Below the pieces are notes generated by a model that saw nothing but the letters and a program-made list of their open reading frames with translations, did no database searches and was not told the DNA's origin. A program made the translations under genes and the position numbers. A DNA stretch of 64,000 nucleotides, from NCBI RefSeq assembly GCF_054482525.1, contig NZ_CM137006.1, one strand, 5' to 3'. Positions 19,138 to 35,545 of the stretch are shown piece by piece (the stretch's first letter is position 1; each line of letters starts with the position of its first letter).

Positions 19138-19850
19138 AATAAATATCCTCCGGCATAGCCGGAGGTTTTTCAAATGCGCCTATAAGGCTCTCTTACCAGC
19201 CGCGCCCTAACAGGCGCACACGATCTGACATTTGCATCCAACTTCGTTACTTACGGCCCGTAAACGGGCTGCCCGGATAGGGAATCGATAACTGCTCTCC
19301 CATTTTATCCTCTTCAAGCTGGTGCTTTATGTAATCCTGTATCTTCGCCGTGTTCTTACCCACCGTATCGACGTAGTACCCTCTGCACCAGAACTCCCTG
19401 TTCCTGTATTTGAATTTCAAATCACCAAACTGCTCGTAAAGCATCAGACTGCTTTTCCCTTTCAGATATCCCATAAAGCCGGATACGCTCATTTTGGGCG
19501 GGATCTCCACAAGCATATGGATATGATCTGCACAGCATTCAGCTTCCAGAATCCGTACACTTTTCCACTCACACAGCTTTCTCAAAATACTGCCTATTGC
19601 TCTACGCTTCTCTCTGTAGAACACCTGTCTTCGGTATTTTGGCGCAAAAACTATGTGATATTTACAGTTCCATCGGGTGTGCGCTAAGCTCTTTTCGTTC
19701 CCCATTGGGACCCCCTTTTGATTTCTTGTTTGACACTTGCAGTTGCCAGACCGCAAGGTGTTTTAACAAATCAAAAGGGGTTTTAATAACTGGCTTAAAG
19801 CTGAAAGCTTTCCGGAACCCCCAGCCTAGCTGGGGGTTTTCTGTGCACAA
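19138..19850 (-). mobile_element. IS200-family insertion sequence (IS200/IS605 group), copy 1, 713 bp
   Basis: 713 bp repeated identically at 55973..56685 with unrelated flanks on both sides; carries a single Y1/HUH transposase gene; subterminal hairpins cctccggcatagccggagg (19147-19165) and ccccagcctagctgggg (19818-19834). Confidence 0.9.
19247..19705 (-). CDS. tnpA: IS200-type Y1 (HUH) transposase TnpA
   Basis: MGNEKSLAHTRWNCKYHIVFAPKYRRQVFY...ADHIHMLVEIPPKMSVS...; 152 aa from internal Met of supplied ORF 19247..19756; HUH motif HIHML. Confidence 0.9.
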   Translation of the reverse strand: MGNEKSLAHTRWNCKYHIVFAPKYRRQVFYREKRRAIGSILRKLCEWKSVRILEAECCADHIHMLVEIPPKMSVSGFMGYLKGKSSLMLYEQFGDLKFKYRNREFWCRGYYVDTVGKNTAKIQDYIKHQLEEDKMGEQLSIPYPGSPFTGRK

Positions 19851-31685: not shown

Positions 31686-32729
31686 TTATCCACGTAGTGT
31701 AGCCGCAAAATCCAGCATACGATTGAGCGGCACCAGCGCCCTCTCTCGCAGCCTTTCATCAACATGAACCTCGTGATTGCTTCCTTCCTGTTCTAATGCC
31801 TCTGCGATGGCCTGAAGGCCATTCATGGCCATCCACGGACAATGCGCGCAGCTGCGGCAGGTTGCACCCTCACCTGCGGTTGGTGCTTCCAGTAACTCTT
31901 TATCTGGCACCGCCTGCTGCATTTTGTAGAAAATACCCCGATCGGTTGCCACAATAAGCCTCTGATGTGGCAATGTTTTCGCAGCAGCGATCAGTTGACT
32001 GGTGGAACCGACCGCATCCGCCATATCGACAATAGCTTGTGGTGATTCTGGATGCACCAGTATGGCAGCATCCGGGTATTCTTCTTGCAAGCGGGTTAAC
32101 GCCTGAGTCTTAAATTCATCATGCACAATGCAGGCACCCTGCCAGCATAAAATGTCTGCGCCCGTCTGTTTTTGCACGTAACGCCCCAGATGTTTGTCGG
32201 GAGCCCAGATGATTTTTTCACCCAAACTATCCAGATGATCAATAAGTTCGACGGCAATGCTTGAAGTTACCACCCAATCTGCCCGCGCTTTTACCGCAGC
32301 AGAAGTGTTGGCGTAGACGACGACAGTATGATCGGGATGGGCATCGCAAAATGCGTTAAATTCTTCAACTGGGCAGCCGAGATCCAGTGAACATTCAGCC
32401 TGAAGTGTCGGCATCAGAATTGTTTTTTCCGGACTGAGAATTTTGGCGGTTTCTCCCATAAATCTCACCCCAGCGACTAACAACGTAGAAGCGGGATGCT
32501 TTGCACCGAAGCGCGCCATTTCCAGAGAATCAGAAATACAGCCACCGGTTTCTTCTGCCAGTTGTTGAATTTCGGGATCGGTATAGTAATGGGCAACCAT
32601 CACCGCATTACGTTCTTTTAGCAGACGTTTTATCTTCTCGCGGTAATACGCTTTTTCATCAATGCTTAACGGCGTCGGCTTCGGGGGGAAAGGATAAATC
32701 GCCGTGTCTGGATCAAACATCACGCTCAT
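31686..32729 (-). CDS. nadA: Quinolinate synthase A
   Basis: 347 aa [51 protein letters not shown]. Confidence 0.95.
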
Positions 32730-32784
32730 CTTACCATCTCGTTTTACAGGCTTAACGTTAAAACCGACATGAGCGTAATATTCG

Positions 32785-32818
32785 CTGTTATCGGTGTAAT
32801 TTGTTTTATATGCTAAAC
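32785..32818. promoter_or_regulatory. Candidate NadR operator (NAD box) in nadA promoter
   Basis: Inverted repeat tgtt...tgttttatatgctaaaca upstream of nadA; spacing not checked against the consensus. Confidence 0.3.
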
Positions 32819-32945
32819 AAGATAGTCGAATGGTGGGGAAAAGTCACTCGAATTACGCCTAATTCCACCGACGTAGAGTTGCTTGCAAAGTAAGCTCTGA
32901 AGATGTCATCAGGTTACAAAGTGAAATTGAGGATGCCTGAATAGC

Positions 32946-32971
32946 AAAAAAGCGCCTTTAGGGCGCTTTTT
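32946..32971 (-). terminator. Intrinsic terminator, distal duplicate copy at end of tRNA operon
   Basis: aaaaaagcgcctttagggcgctttttt; palindromic hairpin with flanking A/T tracts. Confidence 0.7.
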
Positions 32972-32976
32972 TACAT

Positions 32977-33094
32977 TGGTGGGTCGTGCAGGATGACTCG
33001 CTTCGCTCGCCCTTCGGGCCGTCGCCGCGAGCGGCTCCGTTGTTTCGCTGCGCTCAACTCGAACCTGCTGCAGGTTCGAATCTTTGAGTATCGC
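32977..33094 (-). repeat. Truncated tRNA-Lys 3-prime fragment (17 nt) fused to structured spacer element, copy A
   Basis: tggtgggtcgtgcagga (identical to tRNA-Lys 3-prime end) then tgactcgcttcgctcgcccttcgggccg...; also contains T-arm-like gcaggttcgaatc. Confidence 0.7.
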
Positions 33095-33101
33095 AGATAG
33101 C

Positions 33102-33127
33102 AAAAAAGCGCCTTTAGGGCGCTTTTT
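33102..33127 (-). terminator. Intrinsic terminator immediately 3-prime of lysQ
   Basis: Same sequence as 32946-32971, directly following the last tRNA of the operon. Confidence 0.75.
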
Positions 33128-33132
33128 TACAT

Positions 33133-33208
33133 TGGTGGGTCGTGCAGGATTCGAACCTGCGACCAATTGATTAAAAGTCAACTGCTCTACCAACTGAGCT
33201 AACGACCC
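33133..33208 (-). tRNA. lysQ: tRNA-Lys (UUU)
   Basis: 76 nt; reverse complement gggtcgttagctcagttggtagagcagttgacttttaatcaattggtcgcaggttcgaatcctgcacgacccacca with genomic CCA. Confidence 0.95.
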
Positions 33209-33241
33209 CTTGCGGGATTATGCTGCTTTAATCATTCAGGA

Positions 33242-33317
33242 TGGTGGGTCGTGCAGGATTCGAACCTGCGACCAATTGATTAAAAGTCAACTGCTCTACC
33301 AACTGAGCTAACGACCC
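33242..33317 (-). tRNA. lysZ: tRNA-Lys (UUU)
   Basis: Identical 76-nt tRNA-Lys sequence. Confidence 0.95.
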
Positions 33318-33365
33318 ATACGGGTGTTACCTGAAAGATTTCTACTCGGAACCAATCTTTAAAAT

Positions 33366-33463
33366 TGGTGGGTCGTGCAGGATGACTCGCTTCGCTCGCC
33401 CTACGGGCCGTTGCTAGCGCAACGTTATCCTTCACGCTTAACATCTGAGTTTGATGTTAAAAT
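33366..33463 (-). repeat. Truncated tRNA-Lys 3-prime fragment fused to spacer element, copy B
   Basis: tggtgggtcgtgcaggatgactcgcttcgctcgccctacgggccgttgctagcgcaacgttatccttcacg... Confidence 0.7.
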
Positions 33464-33539
33464 TGGTGGGTCGTGCAGGATTCGAACCTGCGACCAATTG
33501 ATTAAAAGTCAACTGCTCTACCAACTGAGCTAACGACCC
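33464..33539 (-). tRNA. lysY: tRNA-Lys (UUU)
   Basis: Identical 76-nt tRNA-Lys sequence. Confidence 0.95.
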
Positions 33540-33542
33540 GAG

Positions 33543-33618
33543 TGGTGGGTGATGACGGGATCGAACCGCCGACCCCCTCCTTGTAAGGGAGGTGCTCTCC
33601 CAGCTGAGCTAATCACCC
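33543..33618 (-). tRNA. valZ: tRNA-Val (UAC)
   Basis: 76 nt; reverse complement gggtgattagctcagctgggagagcacctcccttacaaggagggggtcggcggttcgatcccgtcatcacccacca. Confidence 0.95.
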
Positions 33619-33669
33619 GATACTGCGCTGGATACTACAAACTACTTCCACCGAACCCACCGTAATTAG

Positions 33670-33745
33670 TGGTGGGTCGTGCAGGATTCGAACCTGCGAC
33701 CAATTGATTAAAAGTCAACTGCTCTACCAACTGAGCTAACGACCC
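33670..33745 (-). tRNA. lysW: tRNA-Lys (UUU)
   Basis: Identical 76-nt tRNA-Lys sequence; separated from the next tRNA-Val by 2 nt. Confidence 0.95.
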
Positions 33746-33747
33746 GG

Positions 33748-33823
33748 TGGTGGGTGATGACGGGATCGAACCGCCGACCCCCTCCTTGTAAGGGAGGTGC
33801 TCTCCCAGCTGAGCTAATCACCC
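33748..33823 (-). tRNA. valT: tRNA-Val (UAC)
   Basis: Identical 76-nt tRNA-Val sequence. Confidence 0.95.
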
Positions 33824-33858
33824 GATACTACGCTGGATACTACAACTAACTAGGTTAG

Positions 33859-33957
33859 TGGTGGGTCGTGCAGGATGACTCGACTTCGTCTCGCCCTTCG
33901 GGCCGTTGCTGACGCAACGTTATCCTTCACGTTTTACTACCGCGTCCACCTTAGCGA
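33859..33957 (-). repeat. Truncated tRNA-Lys 3-prime fragment fused to spacer element, copy C
   Basis: tggtgggtcgtgcaggatgactcgacttcgtctcgcccttcgggccgttgctgacgcaacgttatccttcacg... Confidence 0.7.
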
Positions 33958-33958
33958 T

Positions 33959-34034
33959 TGGTGGGTCGTGCAGGATTCGAACCTGCGACCAATTGATTAA
34001 AAGTCAACTGCTCTACCAACTGAGCTAACGACCC
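33959..34034 (-). tRNA. lysT: tRNA-Lys (UUU)
   Basis: Identical 76-nt tRNA-Lys sequence; first gene of the operon. Confidence 0.95.
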
Positions 34035-34198: not shown

Positions 34199-34990
34199 TT
34201 ACATCGCGTTAAGACGTTTTTGTGCCTGTTTAGCGCCATCAGTACCAGGGTATTTACTGATAACCTGCTGGTATACGGCTTTCGCTTTTGCGGTGTCACC
34301 TTTGTCCTGCATGATGACACCGACTTTAAACATCGCATCTGCAGCCTTTGGCGACTTCGGATAGTTTTTTACTACCGAAGCAAAATAGTACGCCGCATCA
34401 TCTTTTTTACCCTTGTTGTAGTTTAACTGACCCAGCCAATAATTGGCGTTTGGCAGGTAAGTTGAATCAGGGTAATTTTTGATGAAATTCTGAAATGCCA
34501 CCATTGCGTCATCCTGGCGGGATTTATCCTGCACCAGCGCAATTGCTGCATTGTAATCCGTGTTTGCATCGCCGCTTTTCACCGGCGCGCCAGCATTCGC
34601 AGTACCAGCATCAGCTGTCGGCGTCGTTGATGCCGCCGCACCGCTTTGATCACCGCTGGTTGATTGCGCCGCTGCACCACCGCTGCTGAGGCTGTCGATC
34701 TGCAACAGGATCTGCTTTTGCCGCTCCACGACCTGATTCAGTTGATACTGATTTTCCTGAATCTGACCGCGCAGGGAATCAATATCGGATTGATTATCAG
34801 AGAGTTGTTGCTGGAGTTGGGTTAAAAGCTGGCTGTGAGCATTTGAAATACGCTCAAGTTGAGTGACGCGGTCTTCGACCGAGCCTGAGCCGACACTACT
34901 GATTGGTGCCTGAGCAAAAGCGGCCCAGGGGGCCGCTATACCAACCAGTAACGACAGACTCAATAGTTGATGTCTGAAGTTACTGCTCAT
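34199..34990 (-). CDS. cpoB: Cell division coordinator CpoB (YbgF), TPR protein of the Tol-Pal system
   Basis: 263 aa, signal peptide MSSNFRHQLLSLSLLVGIAAPWAAFA, coiled-coil then TPR repeats. Confidence 0.93.
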   Translation of the reverse strand: MSSNFRHQLLSLSLLVGIAAPWAAFAQAPISSVGSGSVEDRVTQLERISNAHSQLLTQLQQQLSDNQSDIDSLRGQIQENQYQLNQVVERQKQILLQIDSLSSGGAAAQSTSGDQSGAAASTTPTADAGTANAGAPVKSGDANTDYNAAIALVQDKSRQDDAMVAFQNFIKNYPDSTYLPNANYWLGQLNYNKGKKDDAAYYFASVVKNYPKSPKAADAMFKVGVIMQDKGDTAKAKAVYQQVISKYPGTDGAKQAQKRLNAM

Positions 34991-34999
34991 GCAATTCTC

Positions 35000-35545
<546 letters not shown>

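Follow-up and report, generated by a model that had tools for sequence, protein, structure and literature searches.

Three tRNA-Linked Repeats of Strain-Dependent Copy Number in the lysT Operon of an Escherichia coli Genome

Results

The window, by which we mean the whole 64,000-nucleotide stretch of DNA analyzed here (contig NZ_CM137006.1 of assembly GCF_054482525.1), contains an operon of seven tRNA genes on the minus strand, which ARAGORN places from position 34034 down to position 33133. The operon is flanked by cpoB and nadA, and no integrase or transposase adjoins it. Its genes, spacers, and terminators are given below in the direction of transcription, together with three spacer elements that we call TLR 1 to TLR 3 (for tRNA-linked repeat; TLR 3 is also referred to as copy A). 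RF00391 is the Rfam model RtT, and R1 is a model of our own.

33959..34034, minus strand: lysT, tRNA-Lys(UUU), gene 1 of the operon (ARAGORN; Rfam tRNA model, 79.2 bits)
33859..33958, minus strand: TLR 1, 100 nt, lysT-valT spacer (RF00391, 60.6 bits; R1, 99.9 bits, TLR 1 being part of the training alignment of R1; MFE z-score -2.2; orthologue in K-12); 75-nt structured domain 33933-33859, 5' arm 33931-33922, hairpin H1 33919-33904, 18-nt tRNA-Lys tail 33876-33859
33748..33823, minus strand: valT, tRNA-Val(UAC) (ARAGORN)
33670..33745, minus strand: lysW, tRNA-Lys(UUU) (ARAGORN)
33619..33669, minus strand: lysW-valZ spacer, 51 nt, an empty TLR slot (149 nt with a TLR in K-12; 98-nt indel with an 18-nt repeat at its bounds)
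33543..33618, minus strand: valZ, tRNA-Val(UAC) (ARAGORN)
33464..33539, minus strand: lysY, tRNA-Lys(UUU) (ARAGORN)
33366..33463, minus strand: TLR 2, 98 nt, lysY-lysZ spacer (RF00391, 53.7 bits; R1, 88.8 bits; MFE z-score -3.2); structured domain 33438-33366, 5' arm 33436-33427, hairpin H1 33424-33409, tail 33383-33366
33242..33317, minus strand: lysZ, tRNA-Lys(UUU) (ARAGORN)
33209..33241, minus strand: lysZ-lysQ spacer, 33 nt, an empty TLR slot (132 nt with a TLR in K-12; 99-nt indel with an 18-nt repeat at its bounds)
33133..33208, minus strand: lysQ, tRNA-Lys(UUU), final gene of the operon (ARAGORN)
33102..33128, minus strand: terminator 1, a palindromic GC hairpin between A and T runs (exact palindrome and duplicate search)
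32977..33101, minus strand: TLR 3 (copy A), long form, between the two terminators (RF00391, 51.6 bits; R1, 30.9 bits; labeled "RtT sRNA" by PGAP in strain SCU-102; copy in K-12); T-arm palindrome, divergent H1, 18-nt tail 32994-32977
32946..32972, minus strand: terminator 2, identical to terminator 1 and closing a 156-bp repeat unit (duplicate search)

An earlier note, made from the sequence of this DNA, had reported a second operon terminator after copy A, and this is borne out by a repeat search of the window: positions 32941-32994 and 33097-33150 are identical over 54 nt, with a period of 156 nt. A consensus terminator scan flagged neither operon terminator and pointed instead to hairpins of the TLRs on the plus strand, probably because it extended the stem of the operon terminators into the A and T runs so that no T tail was left. 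Our two terminator calls are based on the exact palindrome and its duplicate and on the literature, in which the terminator of the K-12 lysT and valU operons has been described (PMC4176162). A further duplication lies within the operon, where valT-lysW and valZ-lysY form a 205-bp tandem repeat.

The earlier note had also stated that the spacers at 32977, 33366, and 33859 carry the 3' end of tRNA-Lys. Indeed, eight occurrences of the 17-mer TGGTGGGTCGTGCAGGA were counted in the 64-kb window, where none is expected; five of them coincide with the 3' ends of the five tRNA-Lys genes, and the other three lie at exactly these positions. The match is as exact as claimed but one nucleotide longer: all three elements share ATCCTGCACGACCCACCA with the 3' end of tRNA-Lys, from the T loop through CCA, with 18/18 nt identical. 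Since the operon is encoded on the minus strand, the elements do not begin with this copy, as had been assumed, but end with it when read in the sense of the transcript. TLR 1 and TLR 2 start 1 nt past lysT and lysY, respectively, and TLR 3 starts 31 nt past lysQ, behind the terminator. The bodies of the elements are GC-rich and conserved, on which the repeat families and the alignment agree with the earlier description. Their resemblance to tRNA-Lys is limited to the last 18 nt, to which copy A adds half of a T arm: it contains the T-arm-like motif GGTTCGA that had been noticed before, set in a palindrome together with its own reverse complement. Neither ARAGORN nor the Rfam tRNA model called any of the elements a tRNA, and both returned just the seven true genes in the operon.

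With these features at hand, we could assign the elements to a described family. In a cmscan search, all three exceed the gathering score of 45 bits for RF00391 (60.6, 53.7, and 51.6 bits), and copy A bears the PGAP label "RtT sRNA" in SCU-102, a strain that is 100% identical over this region. E. coli K-12 MG1655 contains five homologous elements in its lysT operon, after lysT, lysW, lysY, lysZ, and lysQ, the final one again between two terminators. An alignment with these five copies and the four copies at K-12 tyrT has 35 invariant columns, and the core common to the lys and tyr elements reads AACGUUGC-loop-GCAACGGCCCGAAGGGCGAG...GAGUMAUCC. The four tyrT copies are strong RtT matches with tails that correspond to the 3' end of tRNA-Tyr. 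These observations show that the three elements are tRNA-linked repeats (TLRs), corresponding to Rfam RtT, and that they are the lysT-operon relatives of the 178-bp tyrT repeat that gives rise to RttR. According to a published account, Egan and Landy were the first to observe TLRs, in 1978, and the catalogue by Rudd from 1999 lists 22 copies distributed over ten K-12 loci, each with one to five of them (PMC8144298). The hallmark of the family is that its last 18-19 bp exactly repeat the 3' terminus of the tRNA or rRNA located upstream (PMC8144298). The comparison with K-12 that the earlier note had called for thus identifies the elements as a standard component of E. coli that belongs to a published family (TLR/RtT, PMC8144298).

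The likeness to the K-12 TLRs extends to the location directly downstream of a tRNA gene in a tRNA operon, the 18-nt tRNA-identical end, and the shared core. Three of the five K-12 lysT-operon TLRs are orthologous to the three in the window, and the two operons differ in number only, because the copies between lysW and valZ and between lysZ and lysQ are absent from the window. With the tyrT elements (RF00391/rttR), the elements described here share a score above the gathering threshold, the core, and a closing helix between a 5' arm and a tRNA-derived tail. In contrast, their tails and arms are specific for tRNA-Lys whereas those of tyrT are specific for tRNA-Tyr, and the tyrT copies reach 133-137 bits with RF00391 compared to 52-61 bits for the elements in the window. 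The two internal copies in the window are of a short form that lacks the ~45-nt pseudo-T-arm module of RtT. Copy A also resembles rrA, rrB, and rrF (in rrnA, rrnB, and rrnD) in its arrangement of stable-RNA gene, terminator, TLR with a copied 3' end, and second terminator. However, the tails of rrA, rrB, and rrF copy 5S rRNA, and these RNAs, in which GGA motifs occur several times, bind both CsrA and Hfq in vitro.

The Rfam matches of the internal copies span 167-169 nt and overlap a tRNA gene. We reject the idea that the elements themselves overlap tRNA genes, since the pseudo-T-arm half of the model is aligned to the real T arm of tRNA-Lys across a 44-nt insertion. The short copies have no pseudo-T-arm module, so cmscan borrows the T arm of the gene and produces the long matches. 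In the cmscan alignment, the 5' arm of the short copies is misplaced, with 44 nt inserted and the mismatched pairs flagged. Users of Rfam and PGAP annotations should be aware that "RtT sRNA" calls in the lysT operon overlap real tRNA-Lys genes and label some copies only.

RNA structure prediction, also suggested in the earlier note, yields a four-helix fold for the last 75 nt. In this model, a closing helix between the 5' arm CGUGAAGGAU and the tail sequence AUCCUGCACG encloses three small hairpins and leaves a free ACCCACCA 3' end, so that the predicted domain looks like a small cloverleaf. Single-sequence folds of the short copies contain this pairing of arm and tail, with MFE z-scores from -2.2 to -4.9. 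To examine covariation, we aligned 31 distinct short-form elements linked to either tRNA-Lys or tRNA-Arg, that is, with two types of tail. In this alignment, 94.6% of the cells are paired according to the four-helix model, compared to 28-50% when the partners are slid. We consider the slid controls fairer than shuffled ones, because the related sequences in the alignment cause shuffle controls to overstate significance. The closing helix contains compensatory changes (UA to GC, GC to AU), and so does the third hairpin (GC, CG, AU, UA). Once the arm is placed next to H1, the closing helix is 89% paired and includes compensatory changes. The sequence of the arm follows the type of tail, with GGGGAAGGAU in elements with a tRNA-Tyr tail, CCAGGGAGGAU in those with a tRNA-Arg tail, and AAGGGAAGAU in the Hafnia variant of the latter. 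Where the T stem of tRNA-Lys has changed, a G-C pair replaces A-U in the pairing of the arm. This covariation between arm and tail speaks for selection on the RNA fold, although individual copies are dispensable. In copy A, the 5' arm is degenerate and the first hairpin differs from that of the short form; it scores weakly with R1 (30.9 bits).

To delineate the distribution of the family beyond tRNA-Lys, the 20-nt core was scanned over about 100,000 species genomes. Among the matches listed, at least 152 contain the core, comprising 113 TLR-like elements, 9 with the 3' end of 5S rRNA, and 30 that resemble chance matches. The nine 5S-tailed elements, again among the matches listed, are the known rrn TLRs, a class that includes the sequence between rrnB T1 and T2. 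Within the same set of listed matches, 95 TLR-like elements have an upstream tRNA, and 81 of them terminate in an exact copy of at least 16 nt from its 3' end: Lys(UUU) in 35 cases, Tyr(GUA) in 27, Arg(ACG) in 13, Pro in 5, and Ser in 1. The hosts in the listed matches are mainly Enterobacterales but also Gilliamella, several marine Gammaproteobacteria, and some metagenome-assembled genomes. The tail tracks the tRNA of its own species, as illustrated by the Hafnia tRNA-Lys tail with CCCGC and by the Hafnia and Yersinia tRNA-Arg tail ATCTTCCTGGG.

Finally, we compared the layout of the operon among E. coli strains. Pairwise alignment of the window with K-12 revealed two clean indels of 98 and 99 nt, each consisting of one TLR and one copy of the 18-nt repeat. 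For a broader sample, 1.5 kb of each flank were joined and searched in 5,426 complete E. coli genomes, and an evenly spaced sample of 60 genomes was evaluated. In this sample, the distance from flank to flank ranges from 576 to 1315 nt and falls into more than 12 length classes, with the length class of the window accounting for 5/60 genomes. The architecture was resolved for 12 loci, namely, ten fetched representatives, the window, and K-12. Across these loci, slots are either filled or empty, with spacer lengths of 135/35, 149/51, 146/48, and 132/33 nt. The number n of terminal TLRs is zero, one, or two, always with n+1 terminators. The operons contain 5-7 tRNA genes and 0-5 TLRs in total, and two of them (L128 and L132) combine all seven tRNAs with zero TLRs. 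Together, the three loci without a TLR (L128, L132, and L133) represent length classes that cover 12/60 genomes, so that about one fifth of the sample appears to have no TLR in the lysT operon, the match between length and architecture having been checked in the fetched genomes only. FDAARGOS_1296 is an example of a natural strain with zero TLRs. The earlier note had considered that the arrangement might be identical in all E. coli; instead, the layout is strain-specific, with three elements here and 0 to 5 in the other strains examined.

The direct repeats of tRNA-Lys in this operon (18 and 76 nt) are shown by these comparisons to allow the clean loss and gain of units. Repeat-driven changes of this kind lead to three copies here, five in K-12, and none in some strains. 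The TLR between lysT and valT is also present in Citrobacter and Pluralibacter. Given this distribution, the simplest explanation for the empty E. coli slots is loss by recombination between direct repeats.

Discussion

The explanation that we favor, with a probability of roughly 85%, is that the three elements are known TLRs, that is, folded modules of ~100 nt, the copy number of which changes through recombination at flanking repeats. The finding is therefore a rediscovery of a described family: TLRs are an ordinary component of the lysT operon, with a copy number that depends on the strain. Its value as a discovery is small, given that descriptions of the family date back to 1978 and that it has been catalogued in K-12, included in Rfam, and annotated by PGAP.

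The earlier note had interpreted the elements as scars of repeated partial tRNA duplication. This interpretation holds for the tails, which are copies of tRNA-Lys, and repeat-bounded duplication and deletion do change the copy number, but it does not hold for the bodies. In its strict form, it would make the elements inert remnants of repeated local duplications of parts of tRNA-Lys, with neither structure nor function of their own. Copy A is indeed part of the 156-bp tandem unit, which is present zero, one, or two times in E. coli and three times in a Pantoea and a Klebsiella locus; the 205-bp tandem duplication formed by valT-lysW with valZ-lysY and the existence of strains without any TLR in the operon point in the same direction. 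However, the core is also found behind at least five other tRNA species, among them tRNA-Tyr, -Arg, -Pro, and -Ser, and behind 5S rRNA, with a tail that matches the respective RNA in every case. Such elements cannot arise from tRNA-Lys by local duplication, which does not explain the bodies. This distribution weakens the scar interpretation, as do the compensatory changes that keep the helices and the retention of the lysT-valT copy across genera (Citrobacter, Pluralibacter), and we regard it as quite improbable. A footprint of mobile or integrative DNA, either from insertion into a T loop with target duplication or as an attR-like tRNA 3' end displaced by an integrase-borne island, would account for the 18-nt direct repeat around an insert of ~80 nt, for its precise presence or absence, and for a repeat that begins in the T loop. 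The T loop is a classic crossover site of integrases in tRNA-gene integration. On the other hand, the sequence between the repeats consists only of ~80 nt of conserved, structured sequence with no island DNA, and the last nucleotide of the repeat coincides with the 3' terminus of the mature RNA, which also applies to 5S rRNA. The occupancy of the slots is conserved across genera while the empty E. coli slots look like losses, structural covariation is unexpected of att arms, and neither an integrase nor a transposase lies next to the operon. We therefore rejected an att site or target duplication as the main explanation, and we consider a footprint of this kind very unlikely. A retro-element, suggested by the 18 nt that correspond in length to retroviral primer-binding sites, was rejected as well for want of support in the data; the position of the conserved body, 5' of the tail in the tRNA sense, is at odds with a simple product of primer extension.

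A different possibility is that spacer RNAs of ~75-100 nt are released and act in trans, either by binding proteins or RNAs in the manner of RrA, RrB, and RrF or as a sponge in the manner of 3'ETS-leuZ. RrB is processed, binds Hfq and CsrA in vitro, and is located between two terminators like copy A (PMC8144298). The K-12 annotation includes a 171-nt tyrT RtT RNA that ends exactly at the pseudo-CCA end, and in RNA-seq of Klebsiella, a cluster of loci named "RtT RNA", 166-170 nt in length, gave differential signal (PMC4147364); from these lengths and the clustered locus tags we infer that they are lysT-operon copies. However, binding of Hfq and CsrA in vitro concerns only the three rrn-operon TLRs rrA, rrB, and rrF, which lie between T1 and T2, whereas a predictor of CsrA binding assigned scores of <0.01 to the 19 TLRs from tRNA operons (PMC8144298). 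A modulating role of RtT RNA in the stringent response was claimed early on but then retracted, and TLRs are said to "have no known function" (PMC8144298). Northern blots of wild-type K-12 with spacer probes detected few processing intermediates, and a stable spacer RNA was not described (PMC4176162). The number of copies also varies from 0 to 5 between strains. We do not think that TLRs serve as trans regulators, and we consider this explanation unlikely.

By their position and according to the literature, transcription of the operon includes TLR 1 and TLR 2 in the precursor, where they make up the long 3' trailers that follow lysT and lysY. Copy A sits past the first terminator, between the duplicates, and hence would be transcribed by read-through only. 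In K-12, RNase P removes the terminator and then cuts the 5' end of each tRNA in the order from 3' to 5', so that tRNA-Lys precursors retain 3' trailers that may reach about 150 nt (PMC4176162). These trailers are the TLRs. Their removal has been assigned to RNase II and PNPase and modeled as simple degradation (PMC4176162), and for the 5S-type repeat, a defined cleavage point with RNase E has been proposed (PMC8144298). With its fold and its tRNA-like 3' end, the module may affect the precursor in cis, in that it could set a defined point for cleavage or trimming and slow the entry of 3'-exonucleases. Such a cis-acting role in processing is a tentative proposal on our part, and we hold it to be possible rather than probable.

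A more far-reaching idea is that TLRs are selected, tRNA-sized, cloverleaf-like RNAs that are recognized by the maturation machinery of tRNA and 5S rRNA, or propagated via an RNA intermediate, with an undiscovered role in the processing or quality control of stable RNA. The co-evolution of the arm with a tail that matches the upstream gene, together with a copy that starts in the T loop and ends at the mature 3' end, is what would speak for a selected module of this kind; nonetheless, we assign this idea a very low probability. Any function of TLRs seems to be dispensable, since natural strains contain all seven tRNAs and zero TLRs. The variability of the lysT operon provides a natural experiment, in which seven-tRNA strains devoid of TLRs can be compared directly with TLR-bearing strains.

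Two minor observations concern the annotation of this region. Sub-threshold Rfam matches to YrlA, Plastid-ycf2, AgrB, and sraL were ignored as cross-matches to tRNA-like or terminator sequence. Copy A also contains an arginine-rich open reading frame of 28 codons (32971-33057, minus strand) that has the peptide RRPEGR in common with the "protamine-like" tpr reading frame of tyrT. We did not accept this frame as a gene and treat it as a by-product of the core, because the same reading frame runs through the conserved core.

Repeats and length variation within the operon

Because the TLR (tRNA-linked repeat) between lysW and valZ is missing in the window strain, the units valT-lysW and valZ-lysY together make up a tandem repeat of 205 bp that is almost perfect (window 33464-33845; 1.9 copies, 98% identity). 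This repeat is a further substrate for copy-number change, and the loss of a Lys-Val pair in one sampled strain (locus L133) is in line with this role. Downstream, between lysQ and nadA, comparison of the 2586 region of locus L002 with window 32700-32945 shows an indel of 29 nt that distinguishes two E. coli groups, one with a spacing of 403 nt and the other of 432 nt. This indel is the reason why only 97% of the flank query is covered in many genomes.

Coding potential and rRNA-linked cores

Copy A, the TLR between the two operon terminators 3' of lysQ, contains an open reading frame:
32971-33057, minus strand, arginine-rich ORF of 28 codons, MSAAKQRSRSRRRPEGRAKRVILHDPPM

Comparison with the "protamine-like" tpr ORF of the K-12 tyrT repeat revealed a conserved core read in the same frame, with RPEGR common to both. 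The copy A ORF probably arises incidentally from the GC-rich core.

Among the matches listed in the genome scan, nine loci (L030, L032, L033, L051, L052, L061, L072, L080 and L093) carry TLR cores whose tail is the 5S rRNA 3' end, AACTGCCAGGCAT; on the 3' side of these cores lies tRNA-Asp, tRNA-Thr(GGU) or a terminator. These cores are the already known rrA/rrB/rrF class. The rrnB T1-T2 terminator fragment in wide vector use includes one such 5S-tailed TLR.

Neighboring elements

The pal-cpoB gap, immediately upstream of the tRNA operon, holds a full-length RNA match:
34961-35099, minus strand, CpoB/ybgF intercistronic RNA thermometer (RF02782, 142 bits)

The window also contains two identical IS200-like elements in the same direction, separated by 36,835 bp:
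19138-19840, IS200-like element, copy 1, STnc490 (RF01405), 146.1 bits
55973-56675, IS200-like element, copy 2, STnc490 (RF01405), 146.1 bits

The ORF examined in copy 1 gives a hit to Pfam PF01797, the Y1 transposase family (E = 3.8e-38).
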